IMG/VR virus record: IMGVR_UViG_3300046523_000117
DNA: 64,000 nt
DNA from: a virus
Lineage: Duplodnaviria; Heunggongvirae; Uroviricota; Caudoviricetes
Reading direction: 5' to 3' (one strand)
Numbering within the stretch: the stretch's first letter is position 1; the number at the start of each line of letters is the position of its first letter. A program made the position numbers and the translations under genes. The notes under the pieces are model-generated. The model did no database searches and had not been told where the DNA came from. It worked only from the letters and a program-made list of their open reading frames with translations. Positions 34,621 to 44,316 of the stretch are shown here, one piece after another.

Positions 34621-34956
34621 TTATTCTTGGGTTTGTGCGACCGGTGCCGGTGTCTGGATCACAGTCGGTGACGTGCTGATTTCGACCATTCGATCACATG
34701 CCAACGACCGGGCGACTTCTTCACAGTCGTATCGGTTTTGTTTGGTCTTCGGACCATTCAGATAGCATTGGTTGAACTGTTGGATCACCAATTGCTTCTG
34801 AATCAGGGATGAACAGTTATAGAACACCCGTGTAGAGTCTGTGCGATTTTCACTGTGATTGACTTCTTCTTTCGAAGCACAACCACCCAGAGTGACAAGG
34901 GCCAGAGCCAGTACAATCAATTTACCTTTCATGCGGAATTTCCTTTTGTTATCCAA
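34621..34956 (-). CDS. lipoprotein (111 aa)
   Basis: MKGKLIVLALALVTLGGCAS signal peptide plus lipobox. Confidence 0.6.
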   Translation of the reverse strand: MDNKRKFRMKGKLIVLALALVTLGGCASKEEVNHSENRTDSTRVFYNCSSLIQKQLVIQQFNQCYLNGPKTKQNRYDCEEVARSLACDRMVEISTSPTVIQTPAPVAQTQE

Positions 34957-35560
34957 TCGGATCAGTGAGAACTAGTTGACCGGTGGGGCGAATCATCCAG
35001 TTTGACCCGTGACAATCCACTTTCGCATCCGGTAACCCAGCCATCCAAATCACGATATCTGCTAGGTTGTTTGTATTGTAGTTACGGTTCCCGCGCATGT
35101 CAAACTGATTCCGCAAAAAATCTGCAATTTTCTTTCGTTTACCATTCAGGGTTTTAAACTGATTGATAAACCATTGATTTCTACAGAGTTTTACGACATT
35201 CGACATTCCGACACTATGAACGATTTCGCTTTCATAGAGCCGTTCCATACAGGCTATTGCTCGACCATCATCCACAAACATATTATAAATTTTTGGCATC
35301 AATGGATTTGAGTCCATATGCCGGGTGACATGCTCTGCGTACTGAATCCAAGGGTCAGACCCTTTCCACGACAGTTTGAACACCCGCTCAGAATCGATTT
35401 GCCCAATCACCGACGAGTAAAACCCGGTTCCGTGATATTTCCATCCAACCGGCATCAAGCGTTGAAGCTCTAGGGTTTCGTGGAAGACGCGGGGAGCGTG
35501 TTGCATTGCTCCCTGCAAATCACCAGCAATCAGACAATCAATTAGTTTTGCGACATCCAT
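34949..35560 (-). CDS. atypical protein-kinase-like fold protein (203 aa)
   Basis: HGTGFYSSV Gly-loop-like, VFKLS Lys, DCHGSNWMI (DxHxxN catalytic-loop-like), LVLTDPIG (DFG-position); paralog of 35542..36375. Confidence 0.45.
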   Translation of the reverse strand: MDVAKLIDCLIAGDLQGAMQHAPRVFHETLELQRLMPVGWKYHGTGFYSSVIGQIDSERVFKLSWKGSDPWIQYAEHVTRHMDSNPLMPKIYNMFVDDGRAIACMERLYESEIVHSVGMSNVVKLCRNQWFINQFKTLNGKRKKIADFLRNQFDMRGNRNYNTNNLADIVIWMAGLPDAKVDCHGSNWMIRPTGQLVLTDPIG

Positions 35561-36375
35561 GAAAACTTAGTGCCTTGCTCCAGTTGCGTGTAGCCATTCA
35601 AAATGTCACAGATTGGGTCAGTCAGGACCGGGAAGCCATCGCGATGCATGACGTTGCTTGAGCTGATATCGTCACAGCCACGTACAGAATTTCGGTGGTC
35701 TTCGTAAACCCTAGCAGCAACAATTGCATCAATCGGACTGTGCTTAATGAACTGCCCGAACGTAAATTCGGCATTTTCCATGTAGCGGTCCACGTCGAAG
35801 TCTTCGAAAAAGGATTCGTCGGCCAGATCACCGAGCGAACCATCCTCAAAGGACAGGCCGACGCCAAGATGCAGATGCTCTACCACAGCGATGTACAGAT
35901 GTCCACGTTGTTCAATCGATTTGATGTTAGGGATATACGGGTTCCCTTGGTGCTGCGTGCAAGTCTTCATCCAACCAAACCCACCATCTACAGGCGAATA
36001 AAAGTTGTCCCGGCAGTTGACTTTCAACACCCACTCAGGGCCGAGGCTAAACACCTCTGCGAAAGATCCATTGCCGATGAAAATAAAGCACTTAGCAAGC
36101 ACTTCGGAGATAAATTCGAGGTCATACCCACTATCAGGTACGCCATCTACCGGAGTAAACTCACTGCCGAGTTTATCCTTGGTCGCATACTTGCCGAAGA
36201 TTTGAATCAAATTCTTCGGCAAGTTACGGATATCATCTTGTACGGCCTTGACATCAGCAACTGCTTGATGTACTAGATCGTCGTAGGACGGACCAATTTT
36301 AACTACACCACCTGCAAAGGAAATGCAAAAACTATCTGCACACCCCATATCTGCAACCGCTGCAACTGCGCCCAT
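35542..36375 (-). CDS. atypical protein-kinase-like fold protein (277 aa)
   Basis: IGNGSFAEVF glycine loop, WVLKV lysine, VMHRDGFPVLTDPI catalytic/DFG-like segment. Confidence 0.5.
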   Translation of the reverse strand: MGAVAAVADMGCADSFCISFAGGVVKIGPSYDDLVHQAVADVKAVQDDIRNLPKNLIQIFGKYATKDKLGSEFTPVDGVPDSGYDLEFISEVLAKCFIFIGNGSFAEVFSLGPEWVLKVNCRDNFYSPVDGGFGWMKTCTQHQGNPYIPNIKSIEQRGHLYIAVVEHLHLGVGLSFEDGSLGDLADESFFEDFDVDRYMENAEFTFGQFIKHSPIDAIVAARVYEDHRNSVRGCDDISSSNVMHRDGFPVLTDPICDILNGYTQLEQGTKFSWMSQN

Positions 36376-36402: not shown

Positions 36403-36603
36403 TTATGTTGGTTGTTTTTTGTGCAGCTTGTAATCTGCTGGGCAGTGTTTGTTCCAGATCGAAGCGTCCAGATCCAAAATTCCCTGTTGACGACAAAGTG
36501 TCTCGAACGATGTTCTCCCCGCGTGGTACACCTTGCTGTCATCGCTATATTGATAGAACCAATCGTGCTTTGCAAGCAGTTTTTCGTAATCAGACAGTAA
36601 CAT
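36403..36603 (-). CDS. hypothetical protein (66 aa)
   Basis: minus-strand ORF. Confidence 0.45.
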   Translation of the reverse strand: MLLSDYEKLLAKHDWFYQYSDDSKVYHAGRTSFETLCRQQGILDLDASIWNKHCPADYKLHKKQPT

Positions 36604-37072
36604 TCAGGGTAAATTCCGCTTTTTCAAGTTCGAGCCAAGCTTTGTGGTAGGTCTGGACGCGGGCGATGTCGCTAGGACGCACGCCCTTGAGCCGGGTGAT
36701 GCACGAATTGTGCTGTAGGTCACCTTTTTTGATCCGAATAATATCTACCCGACCTGCGGTAATCAGTCGCTGAATGAAATCCTCATAGGGTTCATCCTTA
36801 CGACGGGTCAACAGATCCAGACCAGATTCGAATTCTTCCAGAACGTCATATGCTCTGGCTTGGACCAACAAATGTTGAACCATTTCTGGGTGGTCTTCCT
36901 TGACATCATGACAAACCGCCAGTGCAAGGCTTACCGGGTTGGTAACGCCAAGTTTCCGTGCATTTTCCATGACGGTAATACAGTGCAAAATGTATGCCTT
37001 ACCGCCCTTGTCTACATCAAATTGATGTGCCATCGCAGCTACTGCAAAAACACCACCCAGAAGAGTTCCCAT
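36590..37072 (-). CDS. HD-domain hydrolase, RelA/SpoT-type (small alarmone hydrolase-like)
   Basis: YILHCITVMENARKLG...SLALAVCHDVKEDH matches the Rel/SpoT HD signature (HP...AALLHDVxED); 160 aa single domain. Confidence 0.6.
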   Translation of the reverse strand: MGTLLGGVFAVAAMAHQFDVDKGGKAYILHCITVMENARKLGVTNPVSLALAVCHDVKEDHPEMVQHLLVQARAYDVLEEFESGLDLLTRRKDEPYEDFIQRLITAGRVDIIRIKKGDLQHNSCITRLKGVRPSDIARVQTYHKAWLELEKAEFTLNVTV

Positions 37073-37791: not shown

Positions 37792-38094
37792 TTATCGATA
37801 GCTGGATTCGTAGGTGCCGGTAATGCCGATTTCGATTGTGAAATCATCACCCATATTGAATTCGTTGAATTCCCATCCACTTAGATACAGCAAATCCCGA
37901 CCGTTGGCTTCGAAGAAATCCCAACATGCGGGAGAAACCTTTACATCAAATTCCAGCTTTAGGGATTTGCGATTCAACCCAGTAACCGGGGCATTCACCA
38001 TCGCCTTTGCAATGGCTTCCCGAGCTTCGTTAAGGTGAATCTGTACACGCTGCGAAAAGATCGTAACCGGCGTTGGTACTGAAACCTGATTCAT
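37792..38094 (-). CDS. hypothetical protein (100 aa)
   Basis: minus-strand ORF. Confidence 0.45.
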   Translation of the reverse strand: MNQVSVPTPVTIFSQRVQIHLNEAREAIAKAMVNAPVTGLNRKSLKLEFDVKVSPACWDFFEANGRDLLYLSGWEFNEFNMGDDFTIEIGITGTYESSYR

Positions 38095-38629
38095 TCTGCA
38101 TCAATTCCTGTGCGTAGATTTTATAAAGGGCTTCCCGATCTTGGGGCTCCCAGAGATTGAACGTGGTGATTCTCAAGCCCTTGGCCAGATTGAACGCTGT
38201 AGCCGTACCACCCTTGACCGTTCGGCCTCTTGGTGGGGCACACGCGACAACCAAATCAGCCTTTGACTTTAGGTCGTCACCCAATACCTGAAACACGTTG
38301 CGGGTATGGGCGTTCTGTGCGAATTCATCAATTTCATCAAATCTTGGATGTATTCTTCTGGCGATGTCCTGAGCTTCAAACCACAAGTCCCCAAATTCGC
38401 TGGGGACTTTGAAACAATCAGCATTGGATCGACCATTGAAATTTGGTTCAGGTAGATAAATCGTTTTCCGATCCGATTCTACAAACCCCAATTCCCAAGC
38501 GCTATCCGCGCCTCTAGCACCACCAGACCGCAGATGCCAGCCTTTATTAGCGAGGACTGTAGCGAGGTTCTGACAAATCTTAAATTGGATTGCATCAATT
38601 TCCCTCGAACCGATTCCAGTAACGATCAA
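38030..38629 (-). CDS. DprA/Smf-like (SLOG superfamily) Rossmann-fold protein (199 aa)
   Basis: IVTGIGSREID ... LRSGGARGADSAWELG ... VVACAPPRGRTVKGGT parallels DprA GxGxxG / SGGARGID motifs; standalone domain. Confidence 0.5.
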   Translation of the reverse strand: MIVTGIGSREIDAIQFKICQNLATVLANKGWHLRSGGARGADSAWELGFVESDRKTIYLPEPNFNGRSNADCFKVPSEFGDLWFEAQDIARRIHPRFDEIDEFAQNAHTRNVFQVLGDDLKSKADLVVACAPPRGRTVKGGTATAFNLAKGLRITTFNLWEPQDREALYKIYAQELMQNESGFSTNAGYDLFAACTDSP

Positions 38630-38941: not shown

Positions 38942-40291
38942 TTATTGAGCTACTTTCATATCCAGCAGAAGGTCTTTTGCCGCTTTGGCACCTACCACGT
39001 TCATGAAATTGGCGGTTTCGGTTTGACGACCGTTATCACCAGCACCACCCATAACCAGTTGTGGAACCTTGGCTTTGGAGTATGCATCAGCCCAAACTTT
39101 TTCGATTTCGACACGGGCTTGCAGTTTCTGAGTCAAAGCACCGTCAGCGAGGATCACGGCTTTCTTGGCGTAGGCTTCCGCTTCGGCCTTTTCTTTCGTG
39201 GTCTTTGCATCAATTTGAGCTTGTTCAAACTTGATTTGAGAAGTTGCTTTCTCAATCGAAGCCTTTTCTTGCTCACGGGAAGCGTTGGTCAGAGCCAGTT
39301 GTTTTTCAGTTTCGGCGTTGGTGGTACGAATTACCTGATCTTTCATGGTCAGTTGACGTTGTGTTTCAACTTCCATTTCACCGTTTGCAGTAGCAAGTTT
39401 CTTTTGTTCGTCGGCAGTGATACGGCCTTGGCGAGCATAAGACAAATCAGCTTGCGATTGTTGAACTTTCTTCATGCGCTCTTTGAACTGAGGCGATGGA
39501 TCGATGTTCAAAATGTTCGCATCGGCAACAGTTACACCCAGTTTCGAGAACTGACGCTCCAGACGAATCGGCAGACCAGATTTTGCATCCAATACCTTTT
39601 CGGTAATTACAACGGTAGTTGTATCGGCACCGAATGAACCTTGTTCTTTACCATTCTGGGCAACAGCGCCTTGAGTGGCATCACGGGTATTCTTGACTTG
39701 CTTTTCAATTCGCTTGACGACATACGCACCGTCTGCAATTTGATCTTGGAAGCTCTGGCGGAATTCTGTTGCACCACCGTTGTAGTAATCGTCAGCCGAC
39801 ATCAACTGTGCAGTCGATTGCAGCGTGGATTTCATGACCGGCATGATCGATTGAAGAACAAAATTGTCGGGGCTGCGATAAGTACGAGCCAGTTGCAGGA
39901 ACTGTTCACCGTCCGGCAGTGCAACACGAACGTTCGCATCAACAGTAGCAACTACACCACCGAGGAAGGTCACCGGGAATGCTGGAATCAGAGAAGAACC
40001 CAATCCATCAAAATCACCCTTGGGTAATGTTGCGGTATCCAGTACAGATTGAACCGACATCTGGCGAGGCCACGGGGTTACCGTACCAAAACCGATGTAG
40101 GTGTAACCGGTGGTGCTTACAACCTTTTCACCTTGGGTTGGGAACTTGGTCATAACCTGAGTGATGTAACCGGCGCTGTTGTAATAGAACATGCTGCTAA
40201 ACATGAGCCAAACGAACAGAATTGCCGCTACAACGACCGCAGCCGTCCAACCGAGTTTCTTGTTTACTTCAAATCCGAGAATATTGCTCAC
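38942..40291 (-). CDS. SPFH/band-7 (stomatin/flotillin-like) membrane protein with long C-terminal coiled coil (449 aa)
   Basis: N-terminal TM (WTAAVVVAAILFVWLMF), SPFH-like core, Ala/Glu/Lys/Gln-rich flotillin-like tail. Confidence 0.55.
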   Translation of the reverse strand: MSNILGFEVNKKLGWTAAVVVAAILFVWLMFSSMFYYNSAGYITQVMTKFPTQGEKVVSTTGYTYIGFGTVTPWPRQMSVQSVLDTATLPKGDFDGLGSSLIPAFPVTFLGGVVATVDANVRVALPDGEQFLQLARTYRSPDNFVLQSIMPVMKSTLQSTAQLMSADDYYNGGATEFRQSFQDQIADGAYVVKRIEKQVKNTRDATQGAVAQNGKEQGSFGADTTTVVITEKVLDAKSGLPIRLERQFSKLGVTVADANILNIDPSPQFKERMKKVQQSQADLSYARQGRITADEQKKLATANGEMEVETQRQLTMKDQVIRTTNAETEKQLALTNASREQEKASIEKATSQIKFEQAQIDAKTTKEKAEAEAYAKKAVILADGALTQKLQARVEIEKVWADAYSKAKVPQLVMGGAGDNGRQTETANFMNVVGAKAAKDLLLDMKVAQ

Positions 40292-41741: not shown

Positions 41742-43259
41742 TTACGGAATGCGAATTTCGCTAAACGCCCACTCCATAATGTGGTCACCGTCTTCCCACA
41801 CCGTAACCATTTGGTCAACGATTGTGTGATTGGTTTCTTGCAGCTCGATACGATCCGAGAAGAATTTCCCGTTCGAATCTTTGAACGTGGTCACACGACC
41901 TTTCTTGGACCGTTTAACCGAGTCGGTATCCGGGTCTTTGTACAGGTCACGCCACACACCATCTACACACAGTGCAGACGCTTTCATGGCGAATTTGAGC
42001 CAATCACGGTCGCAGTGTTGCAGAAGGGCACCACCCATACCGAAAACGATGTTATCGGCAGAGTAACCAAGTGCGAACATGTTCGCATAGATTTGACGAA
42101 TGCTGGATTCGTTGATGCCGTCGCCTTGCAGAACACGGATGCAATCTGGCAGGACTTTGTAACCTTTGCTGTTGATCGTGTAACCAAAACCTTCCATCAA
42201 AATGCCGATGATTTCTACCGGGATTTCGGTTGCTACACCGGAATCTGGGCGCAGTACAAACGTACCACCAGAATTCATGATTCGAGTTTTGATCGGATCA
42301 GTTGCACACCACTTGGCGAAGCGGCGAATGCTATAAGTATCACCCACACAGGCTACGATGCCTTTGTGTTTTTCCAGCAGTTGGATCGCCATTTCCAGAG
42401 CGTTGGAATCGTCGCGGGTTTCAGCGTCAGAGTTTGCACAAACAACACTGTGTTCCGTTGCACGAACCGAGAAGGCGGGCATTTCGCCTTTCTTCACGCC
42501 GTAGAACTGTTTCAATTCGATGATAGCTTGAATGGTATCAGTACCCATCCAACCGGCCATCAAGTGAGCAGCACCGCCGATGCGAGCAGATTCGACACTG
42601 GACACACCACGGAAACCGAAGTCGTGCAGCTTGAATTGACTACCAACGCCTTCATCAACCGATTCGCGGAAAGCTTGTTCAACCACTTGACGGATGCTGT
42701 ACGAAACAGAAGCCACGGTGATTGGATACCACGCTTGCAGGAACAGCGGTTCGAAGTACGAAACCAGCCATGCAAAGTCCGGGTGGGTGTTTTCAACAGT
42801 CCACAGAACGTTGCCGGTCGGAACAATCGTGCCTTCTTTCAGGCAGCGAATGCGCAGTGGCAGACGGCCTTTGAATTTTGTCACGATTGCTTCCCAACCT
42901 TTACGGTTGAAAACGTTCGGACCCATGTGCAGTTCTACCAGTTCTTCGGCTTCGTCCACATCCTGCATGGTCAGACGACCAGAGAAGTGACGTTTCAGAA
43001 TGGCTTGCAGGCCGACAAATACGGTGTAGGTGTAACCTTCGTTGACACCGCGTACTTCGTGCTGGTCAGATCCACGCGATTCCCCGTAGGAATACAGGTA
43101 CTGTGCCCCGGCTGGGATCATTTCCCAGTGGTCGCCTTTGTACGAATCGGATTTCAGGATCAGGTTGTTTGGGTTGAAATCAAGATTAATATTGAGACTG
43201 GTCATTCTTTCGAACTCCTCGAAAATTGAATTAGTTGTTTTGTTGCGCAGCACGACCAA
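41742..43259 (-). CDS. nadV: nicotinamide phosphoribosyltransferase (NAMPT/NadV)
   Basis: 505 aa; conserved NAMPT blocks (DSYKGDHW, GYTYTVFVGLQAILKRHF, LPLRIRCLKEGT, FGFRGVSSVESA, GTDT). Confidence 0.85.
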   Translation of the reverse strand: MVVLRNKTTNSIFEEFERMTSLNINLDFNPNNLILKSDSYKGDHWEMIPAGAQYLYSYGESRGSDQHEVRGVNEGYTYTVFVGLQAILKRHFSGRLTMQDVDEAEELVELHMGPNVFNRKGWEAIVTKFKGRLPLRIRCLKEGTIVPTGNVLWTVENTHPDFAWLVSYFEPLFLQAWYPITVASVSYSIRQVVEQAFRESVDEGVGSQFKLHDFGFRGVSSVESARIGGAAHLMAGWMGTDTIQAIIELKQFYGVKKGEMPAFSVRATEHSVVCANSDAETRDDSNALEMAIQLLEKHKGIVACVGDTYSIRRFAKWCATDPIKTRIMNSGGTFVLRPDSGVATEIPVEIIGILMEGFGYTINSKGYKVLPDCIRVLQGDGINESSIRQIYANMFALGYSADNIVFGMGGALLQHCDRDWLKFAMKASALCVDGVWRDLYKDPDTDSVKRSKKGRVTTFKDSNGKFFSDRIELQETNHTIVDQMVTVWEDGDHIMEWAFSEIRIP

Positions 43260-44316
43260 TCATGGTCATGATGATGTTGTGATGGTCTTCGAAAAAGTCA
43301 GCCGCGTGTTCCGGGGCAGCGATTTCAGAGATTGGAACCCAGAACGCTTTATCAGCGTCATCGGAACCGTAAACCCGTGGCAAGCTACCGTCATGATTTG
43401 TATCAATCTTGAAAGTAAATGCGAAGGTCATGAGCCGACCGCGAAGGGAACGTTTCGGATTATCGAACCGCTTTTCGTCAATGATCGACTTGCGCAGCAC
43501 CTTTTCAGGCACATGCAGTTTTGTTTCTTCATCCAGTTCACGAATCGCACCGTCTTCAACCGTTTCATTGGTATTGACGAATCCACCGGGTAGAGCAAGT
43601 TTGCCCTTACCGGGAATGTTTTTACGACGAATCAACAGGATGTGGCTTTTGCACAGAACTACCGCGTCTGCGGTTACGTCGTTGATCGGGTATTTGGCCC
43701 GACGATGTGCGGGATACGCTTTGTGGAAATTGTATTCGGCCAGCAGTTCCCGGAACATATCAGAACTGATGAATTTTGTGTTGACATAATCCCAGACACC
43801 GGAAGGCATCATTGGGCCAGCGTCACCAAAATACCCTTCGAACATCAGTTCGCGGATTTTGGTTGCCGCCATTTCTTCGTCGCCGTGCATTTTAGCACCG
43901 GATTCGATGAAATCCCATGTTGGGAACAAATCGAGATAGAATGAACTATCATCTTTCTTGTGCCCAACGATTGCGATTTTCGGAGCTTTGATGCCGGAAA
44001 TGTAACGAGTCGAAAGACGCATTACCTCGGCAGCCCACAAATCGTTCGATGGCATGTCGTTGATGAAACTGATTCCAACGCCTTTGATACCAGCGTCGAT
44101 GGTTGCCAATTCAACCATAGCCGAACGATCACGATTACCGAATGGGTTACGTTCATCACGCGGGGCGTTTGCACTCCCCAGAATCACGACCACTCGATCA
44201 GCAATCGAATCTGCCAGTTTGATGTTGTCCAAATGGGCGTTGTGCAGTGGAGCCATTCGCCCGATGAAAATTGCTAGGTCGTACTTTTTAACGTTGGTCA
44301 CTACTGATCCCCTCAA
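43231..44316 (-). CDS. natV: bifunctional NMN adenylyltransferase / Nudix (ADP-ribose pyrophosphatase) NatV-like
   Basis: The N-terminal cytidylyltransferase fold carries an HxGH-like motif (GRMAPLHNAH). The C-terminal Nudix box is GGFVNTNETVEDGAIRELDEETKL. The gene overlaps nadV. Confidence 0.8.
   Translation of the reverse strand: MRGSVVTNVKKYDLAIFIGRMAPLHNAHLDNIKLADSIADRVVVILGSANAPRDERNPFGNRDRSAMVELATIDAGIKGVGISFINDMPSNDLWAAEVMRLSTRYISGIKAPKIAIVGHKKDDSSFYLDLFPTWDFIESGAKMHGDEEMAATKIRELMFEGYFGDAGPMMPSGVWDYVNTKFISSDMFRELLAEYNFHKAYPAHRRAKYPINDVTADAVVLCKSHILLIRRKNIPGKGKLALPGGFVNTNETVEDGAIRELDEETKLHVPEKVLRKSIIDEKRFDNPKRSLRGRLMTFAFTFKIDTNHDGSLPRVYGSDDADKAFWVPISEIAAPEHAADFFEDHHNIIMTMIGRAAQQNN

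Follow-up and report, generated by a model that had tools for sequence, protein, structure and literature searches.

Two overlapping minus-strand genes, here called A and B, were analyzed in a 64,000-nucleotide (nt) stretch of DNA from a tailed phage (IMG/VR record IMGVR_UViG_3300046523_000117; the whole stretch is hereafter the window). Their products appear to be two anciently diverged, co-inherited kinase domains of the T7 gp0.7 (T7K) family, and we consider it very likely that both belong to this family. An earlier reading of the DNA (the original prediction) had described the genes as a tandem, paralogous pair of protein-kinase-like genes. Both of its open reading frames (ORFs), and every peptide string that it quoted, were confirmed on the minus strand where it had placed them. 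The genes, taken from the ORF list, and their predicted catalytic elements, with residue positions read from an alignment to the family hidden Markov model (HMM), are as follows.

35542..36375, minus strand: gene A, 277 amino acids (aa), ATG start, predicted T7K-family kinase domain
34949..35560, minus strand: gene B, 203 aa, ATG start, predicted minimal T7K-family kinase domain
35542..35560, minus strand: A/B overlap of 19 nt, with the A stop region and the B start
36049..36078, minus strand: A glycine-rich loop I100-GNGSFAEV-F109 (G101, G103, V108), aligning with T7K G74/G76/A81
36022..36024, minus strand: A Lys118, the predicted beta3 'VAIK' Lys, aligning with B K62 and T7K K93
35653..35670, minus strand: A predicted catalytic loop D236-I-S-S-S-N241, aligning with B D182-CHGS-N187 and T7K D195-MHSG-N200
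35611..35619, minus strand: A D253-P-I255, the predicted equivalent of the Asp-Phe-Gly (DFG) motif, aligning with T7K D213-P-V215
35408..35434, minus strand: B glycine-rich loop H43-GTGFYSS-V51 (G44, G46), placed by the family alignment, with T7K G74/G76
35375..35377, minus strand: B Lys62, the predicted beta3 Lys, invariant in B-types and on strand 59-64 of the structural model
35000..35017, minus strand: B predicted catalytic loop D182-C-H-G-S-N187, which is the family consensus D-x-H-x-x-N
34955..34963, minus strand: B DFG-equivalent D200-P-I202, followed by G203 and the stop codon only

The evidence that ties these proteins to T7 gp0.7 came mainly from profile comparisons. PHROG 15752 ('protein kinase; inhibitor of host transcription') matched both proteins (B, E 7e-12; A, E 2.5e-6), and PHROG 2828 matched A (E 4e-4); T7 gp0.7 itself matched PHROG 2828 at 1.6e-169 and PHROG 15752 at 1.7e-46. 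A family profile of 65 members, built with A and B as seeds, aligned with residues 67-221 of T7 gp0.7 (hhalign 99.3%, E 2.2e-20). The profile built from A-types only aligned with T7 gp0.7 over 156 columns, tail included (82%, E 1e-5), and, from A residue 52 onward, with gp0.7 of Dickeya phage DchS19 (91.5%, E 9e-7). The latter, a 369-aa protein encoded directly upstream of a T7-type RNA polymerase gene (the gene 0.7 position), was also found by tblastn with A. Among cultured phages, the family consensus matched almost only T7-like gene 0.7 by tblastn, plus a gene of Pseudomonas phage Milchi, and a B-type ortholog on metagenomic contig L013 has a weak precomputed match to PF27024 (Phage_T7_kinase). 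T7 gp0.7 had been the right comparator, and the PHROG matches, the family profile, and the B model described below all bear out the view of both proteins as protein-kinase-like. A is architecturally the more T7K-like of the pair because it has a helical segment before the glycine loop and a tail (...G.KFSW) that aligns with the T7K segment ...DGGAFSI after DPV, and B is the minimal form.

Other resources added little. Pfam and NCBIfam scans of A and B gave no hits; the Pfam copy used lacked PF27024 and left T7 gp0.7 itself unmatched, so the Pfam negative is uninformative. A PADLOC scan of the two proteins returned nothing useful, and PDB sequence searches with the single proteins and narrow profiles returned noise only. 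With the broad family profile, PDB matches were marginal (best E 1.2e-3), and those listed were all protein kinases. A homolog search with the broad alignment was restricted by its word index and returned mainly A-type relatives.

The residues expected of a kinase active site align across the two proteins and T7K. The strings quoted in the original prediction lie in A at residues 100-109 (IGNGSFAEVF), around K118 (WVLKV), at 242-246 (VMHRD), and at 250-256 (VLTDPIC), and in B at 43-51 (HGTGFYSSV), around K62 (VFKLS), at 182-190 (DCHGSNWMI), and at 197-203 (VLTDPIG). The glycine-loop and Lys assignments were right in both proteins. The LTDPI segment, which had been placed at the DFG or Mg-binding site, aligns column for column with D213-P-V215 of T7K, where a 'DPV' motif stands in for DFG (PMC13645617). 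The predicted catalytic Asp (B D182, A D236, T7K D195) and the Asn that follows it (N187, N241, and N200, respectively) are spaced +5, and the next Asp stands +13 from the Asn in B and +12 in A. This spacing matches that of D166/N171/D184 in protein kinase A.

Two of the catalytic-loop assignments needed correction. VMHRD, proposed as the catalytic loop of A, is out of register: the true loop in the alignment is D236/N241 (DISSSN), the H-R of VMHRD belongs to an N-x-M-x-R motif of the family, and D246 is variable (HRN and HRG in homologs). The D-x-H-x-x-N of B had been taken as a mark of aminoglycoside, Kdo, RIO, or HipA-type kinases, and is instead the consensus loop of the T7K family (D195-M-H-S-G-N200 in T7K). 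The core catalytic residues are present in all tabulated A-types and B-types, in T7K, and in 94-99% of 150 family members (glycine-loop Gly in 94-99%, beta3 Lys in 96%, and D and P of the DFG-equivalent each in 99%). The suggested pairing of a kinase with a pseudokinase therefore has no residue-level case in these alignments: the residues whose loss would mark a pseudokinase (beta3 Lys, catalytic Asp, and DFG-type Asp) are all in place in A, B, and the tabulated orthologs, and glycine loop and Asn are likewise found in both copies of every ortholog. Nor is A the canonical copy and B the divergent one, since the atypical catalytic loop is that of A, with Ser in place of the family His at catalytic Asp+2.

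The two proteins differ in architecture. A consists of an N-terminal helical extension of ~90 aa, the kinase domain, and a conserved 22-aa tail past the DFG-like motif (pattern ...DPICD..G....G..FSWM), and its C-terminus lies 24 residues beyond the DFG-like Asp; the C-terminus of B lies 3 residues beyond. The ATG of B (35560-35558) falls inside the A codons TCA-TGG, which encode the S-W of the FSWM tail. The AlphaFold2 model of B (predicted local distance difference test [pLDDT] 88, predicted template modeling score 0.83) shows a protein-kinase-like fold. The chain opens with three helices at the N-terminus, followed by an N-lobe of five strands and one helix, then four helices (119-174) and the catalytic loop, and it ends after two short strands; ~75 residues of helices lie between the hinge and the catalytic loop. 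Its nearest BFVD neighbors are gp0.7-type kinases, including A0A7L7SMK1, which has been named as a T7K homolog (PMC13645617). The C-terminal shut-off (DNA-binding) domain of T7K is present in neither A nor B. The jumbophage and prophage homologs of T7K also lack it (PMC13645617), indicating that this domain defines the Autographiviridae architecture and not the kinase family. B-type orthologs all end 0-4 residues past DPI; in the wider family, most top matches are 160-220 aa long, and 58 of 141 single-domain members end ≤5 residues from the DFG-like Asp (median tail, 9 residues). The abrupt end of B is thus the usual form in the family rather than a truncation.

A and B are distant paralogs, as the original prediction had it, with a likeness that exceeds chance and is visible at the profile level only. 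By BLASTP the two align with E 0.085, over the D-x4-N...LTDPI stretch alone, and hhalign of their family alignments gave a probability of 87% (E 4e-6, 142 columns). The merged alignment has 19 invariant columns, all kinase catalytic positions among them; in B numbering they include G46, K62, D69, N85, P89, A103, E106, L108, D182, N187, R191, and V197-L-x-D200-P-I202. The separate families of A and B are small (7 and 10 homologs) and contain metagenomic sequences only. The pair does not look like a recent duplication: in a crude neighbor-joining tree, A-types and B-types form separate old clades. Each is monophyletic, the branching orders within them are congruent, and they are not sister groups. 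An older duplication of an A-like ancestor is possible, the tree being star-like. A single frameshift-split gene and programmed frameshifting were likewise rejected on the basis of the separate clades and of overlaps that differ in length (19/13/8/4 nt), and no X_XXY_YYZ slippery heptamer was found on reading the 19-nt overlap.

The window comes from a T4-type phage, as originally stated, and encodes gp43 polymerase, UvsX, gp41 helicase, both topoisomerase II subunits, RnlA, and NadV/NatV at a GC content of ~46%. Its DNA polymerase is 72% identical to those of Pseudomonas phages Milchi and Astolliot, with Vibrio schizo-T4 phages next at ~45%, and megablast of the A/B locus against cultured phages gave no match. 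On these grounds, we place the phage in a deep, sparsely sampled T4-like lineage. No tRNA gene was found in the 64-kb window; Milchi is reported to encode 29. For T4 itself, said in the original prediction to encode no protein kinase, the HMM found no family member in the first 50 kb, a stretch that takes in the syntenic gene 47-nrdC region; the rest of the genome was covered only by tblastn, with no T4 record among the matches.

The order A then B, always with overlapping frames, was found in 12 genomes, namely the window, four IMG/VR contigs of 75-183 kb, Milchi, Astolliot, and five more metagenomic contigs. Overlap lengths in related genomes were 19, 19, 13, 13, 4, and 8 nt. The kinases are 27-43% identical to the window copies and are among the fastest-evolving genes of their block, in which most neighbors are 44-76% identical; the polymerase stands at 72%. 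Retention of the pair with overlapping frames at such low identity supports selection on the pair. On two T4-like contigs of more distant relationship, the slot is occupied by one A-like kinase only (L017:4001-4753, 250 aa, and L018:4001-4798, 265 aa), and no B-type gene lies within 4 kb. These single kinases keep the catalytic-loop His (DMHGEN and DVHDEN) and score between the A and B profiles.

The family to which A and B are assigned appears far larger than has been reported. In an exhaustive HMMER search, the merged profile of A and B matched 322 cluster representatives at E ≤1e-10 and 3,656 at the looser cutoff of E ≤1e-3, suggesting at least that many clusters at each threshold. Most members are domains of ~170-220 aa that end at or just past the DFG-equivalent. 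We also observed 'poly-kinase' proteins (P0018, P0020, P0025, P0030, and others) with two to five complete tandem T7K-like domains of ~170-200 aa per polypeptide. P0018 (L014:193-3258) comprises five domains over 1,021 aa. It is a real ORF of a phage-like contig of 56 kb, where Gad2-like, 5'-3' exonuclease, and methyltransferase genes are its neighbors.

T7K and its ortholog JSS1_004 are promiscuous Ser/Thr/Tyr kinases with broad anti-defense activity, and T7K-type kinases have recently been shown to be hyper-promiscuous and to disarm many bacterial defense systems (PMC13645617, PMC12345140). Taking A and B together, we favor, with moderate confidence, a role as T7K-family kinases in early host takeover or anti-defense phosphorylation. 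Both proteins would bind Mg-ATP through the glycine loop, Lys, Asn, and the Asp of DP(I), and the catalytic-loop Asp would serve phosphate transfer. Early after infection, they would probably phosphorylate many host (and phage) proteins at Ser/Thr(/Tyr), and, by analogy with T7K, the phosphorylation may redirect host machinery and inactivate defense proteins. Many targets are probable because B has no activation segment or substrate-binding C-lobe past the DFG-equivalent and because T7K-type kinases are hyper-promiscuous; the lack of any activation or substrate-binding segment beyond the DFG-equivalent would be consistent with low substrate selectivity. Both copies have been retained, probably for differing targets, properties, or regulation, with A bringing T7K-like N- and C-terminal extensions and an altered catalytic loop and B presumably acting as a bare catalytic core.

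Several results weigh against this proposal. The identity of A and B to T7K is ~16-30%, so that substrate class and promiscuity are not safely transferable. The B-only profile matched T7 gp0.7 at 19% probability (E 1.2e-3) and over the N-lobe only, and the tie of B to T7K appears transitive, by way of PHROG 15752 and the broad family profile. Structure prediction, which had been put forward as a check, supported a kinase-like fold for B and gave a poor model for A (pLDDT 52.8), so the fold of A is read from the sequence alignment alone. A also has no His at the site of the catalytic-loop Lys of eukaryotic protein kinases (ePKs). Early expression of the pair is suggested by genome position alone, and a promoter/terminator scan of the region showed no enrichment (4 sites versus 6.6 expected). 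Finally, ~12 kb around A and B are collinear through the clade (gp47-like nuclease, SPFH, gp30.3-like, DprA-like, HD hydrolase, A, B, lipoprotein, and glutaredoxin), and because the whole block is collinear, the neighborhood is weak evidence for function.

The best-surviving alternative, which we regard as unlikely, is that only B is a working kinase and that A, a kinase-fold protein of weakened catalysis, serves it in a complex as activator, scaffold, or targeting subunit. Such a catalytic and regulatory pair would be analogous to kinase/pseudokinase pairs, and A could stand in for the targeting role of the T7K shut-off domain. The His at catalytic Asp+2 is retained by all B-types, T7K, 77% of the family, and the single-copy A-like kinases of L017 and L018, and has been lost in 11 of the 12 paired A-types (S/G/A/V/Q instead). 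In a weak match of the family profile to PDK1, the catalytic loop aligns with HRDLKPEN and the His falls on the catalytic-loop Lys of classical Ser/Thr kinases. Always-overlapping frames would also fit coupled translation, A has extra conserved N- and C-terminal segments, and proteins with two to five fused domains may reflect a recurring theme of copies acting together. However, the glycine loop, Lys, Asp, Asn, and DFG-like Asp persist in every A ortholog despite 27-34% identity, and pseudokinases usually lose at least one of these. The His itself appears dispensable in the family, being absent in 23% of members, and paired A-type L019 still has it. Overlapping genes, moreover, are common in T4-like genomes.

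A related and somewhat more doubtful reading is that A and B form an obligate two-subunit kinase, in which A would complete, activate, or target the bare core B and would have shed its His after B arose. The clade of T4-like phages would then have arrived at a split, heteromeric form of the T7 anti-defense kinase, and the poly-kinases with two to five domains would represent the same principle in fused form.

It is improbable that, instead of proteins, A, B, or both phosphorylate small molecules such as a metabolite, a nucleotide, an antibiotic-like compound, or an envelope sugar, in the manner of aminoglycoside, choline, or Kdo kinases. The B model has no recognizable peptide-binding lobe, and a neighboring gene product probably acts on nucleotide alarmones, as described below, both of which would suit this idea, and fold alone would be compatible with it. 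Nevertheless, the nearest relatives by sequence and predicted structure are of the T7K type, for which protein-kinase activity is proven (PMC13645617), and the weak PDB matches of the family profile that were listed were all protein kinases. No Pfam match to aminoglycoside phosphotransferase (APH), choline-kinase, RIO, or Kdo families was found at E ≤1, and neither protein has the His that APH enzymes carry at catalytic Asp-2 (B reads K-V-D and A reads C-D-D). That the locus holds no functional feature at all, only chance motifs, decaying duplicates, or a frameshift-split gene, might be argued from the non-significant BLASTP alignment of A with B and the lack of Pfam/NCBIfam matches (the Pfam part of which says nothing, T7 gp0.7 being unmatched as well), but is effectively refuted by the profile-level homology of the two proteins, the strong family-level match to T7K, the separate clades, the confident kinase-like model of B, the invariant catalytic residues, the missing slippery heptamer, and ORFs that are intact in 12 genomes, with starts and ends conserved and overlap lengths varying.

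Other features of the window near A and B are listed below.

36590-37072, minus strand: HD-domain gene, 160 aa, homolog of the (p)ppApp hydrolase of PDB 7smg (E 1.4e-13), PHROG 990
34621-34956, minus strand: predicted lipoprotein gene directly downstream of B, with signal peptide and lipobox ...LVTLGGC
35075-35103, minus strand: sigma-70-type promoter match TTGACA-17-TACAAT (11/12), inside the B coding sequence and facing the lipoprotein gene
38030-38629, minus strand: DprA-like protein, 199 aa, conserved upstream in the same block
38942-40291, minus strand: SPFH/Band_7-domain protein, 449 aa, 64-86% identical across the clade, PHROG 11908
41742-43259, minus strand: nicotinamide phosphoribosyltransferase (NadV-like), for NAD salvage as in KVP40-type phages
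43231-44316, minus strand: cytidylyltransferase/NUDIX fusion (NatV-like), for NAD salvage as in KVP40-type phages

The HD-domain gene has an HDxxED-type motif (CHDVKED) and probably encodes a phage small alarmone hydrolase. It lies upstream of the kinases in all related genomes, and only a 66-aa ORF separates it from A. A (p)ppApp hydrolase would be another function of the host-takeover type, which is a minor point for the role proposed for A and B. The predicted lipoprotein is 61-75% identical across the clade, far better conserved than the kinases, and its true start is probably an internal Met because homologs are 82-88 aa long. A and B are relatively poor in Ser/Thr/Tyr (13.4% and 11.3%, respectively, versus a median of 15.8% in a crude control set of 76 minus-strand window ORFs of ≥100 aa), which echoes the Ser/Thr/Tyr depletion reported for early proteins of T7K-encoding phages and is likewise a minor point for the proposed role.

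The T7K family has been described as occurring 'almost exclusively' in Autographiviridae (PMC12345140), and jumbophages and prophages were later added to it, with no mention of T4-like phages (PMC13645617). New here is its occurrence in a deep T4-like lineage, from which it had not been reported and in which it forms a conserved module of two genes. Already on record is an automatic annotation of the B-type gene of Milchi as 'protein kinase'; the A-type gene of that phage is still 'hypothetical', and the paper describing Milchi discusses neither. Three points merit follow-up, namely the conservation of the A/B pair, the minimal architecture with its end at the DFG-equivalent, and the family size, and the lineage has cultured members in Milchi and Astolliot. 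A and B make it possible to test what minimum size a working protein kinase can have and whether T4-like phages take over the host by means of phosphorylation. T4 itself, as far as is known, relies on ADP-ribosylation.

Among known systems, the APH enzymes APH(2'') and APH(3') have a kinase-like fold, as B is predicted to have, and their fold-search scores were comparable to those of protein kinases; unlike them, A and B have no match to the sequence family and no H-x-D signature, and their nearest homologs are protein kinases. Kinase-PolyVal (PF18762) and YrbL-PhoP_reg (PF10707) are short kinase-like domains of phages and mobile elements, each matched by 3 of the 65 broad-family members; A and B themselves matched neither at E ≤1. 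The ePKs (Pkinase, PF00069; TTK, PknB, and PDK1) have, as A and B do, an Asp-x4-Asn followed by an Asp 12-13 residues on. In contrast to ePKs, A and B have no HRD, DP(I) replaces DFG, and the family has His for the catalytic-loop Lys; B, in addition, lacks an activation segment, an APE motif, and any helix beyond the DFG position, and has the helical insert of ~75 residues before the catalytic loop. No Pfam match of A or B to the classical Pkinase family was found at E ≤1, and the fold likeness is at the superfamily level only.

The T7K homologs without a shut-off domain in jumbophages (phage Munch of Salmonella and phage G17 of Escherichia) and prophages resemble A and B, by their description, in being diverged, in having lost that domain, and in a less conserved residue after D-P (PMC13645617, Fig. 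5). They belong to another phage lineage, and a tandem A/B pair has not been reported for them (PMC13645617). T7 gp0.7 (T7K; PHROG 2828; PF27024) is a 359-aa protein with a C-terminal shut-off/DNA-binding domain, encoded by a single gene of Autographiviridae at the early-injected genome end next to the RNA polymerase gene. A and B, at 277 and 203 aa, lack this domain, are not so placed, and occur as two diverged tandem copies in a T4-like myovirus, and B, unlike T7K, ends at the DFG-equivalent. T7K and its ortholog JSS1_004 nevertheless appear to share a homologous kinase domain with both proteins. T7K and the pair have the same layout of G-x-G loop, Lys, D-x-H-x-x-N region (without the loop His in A), and D-P-(V/I) for DFG, and T7K and A also have in common the helical segment before the glycine loop and a short segment after DPV.

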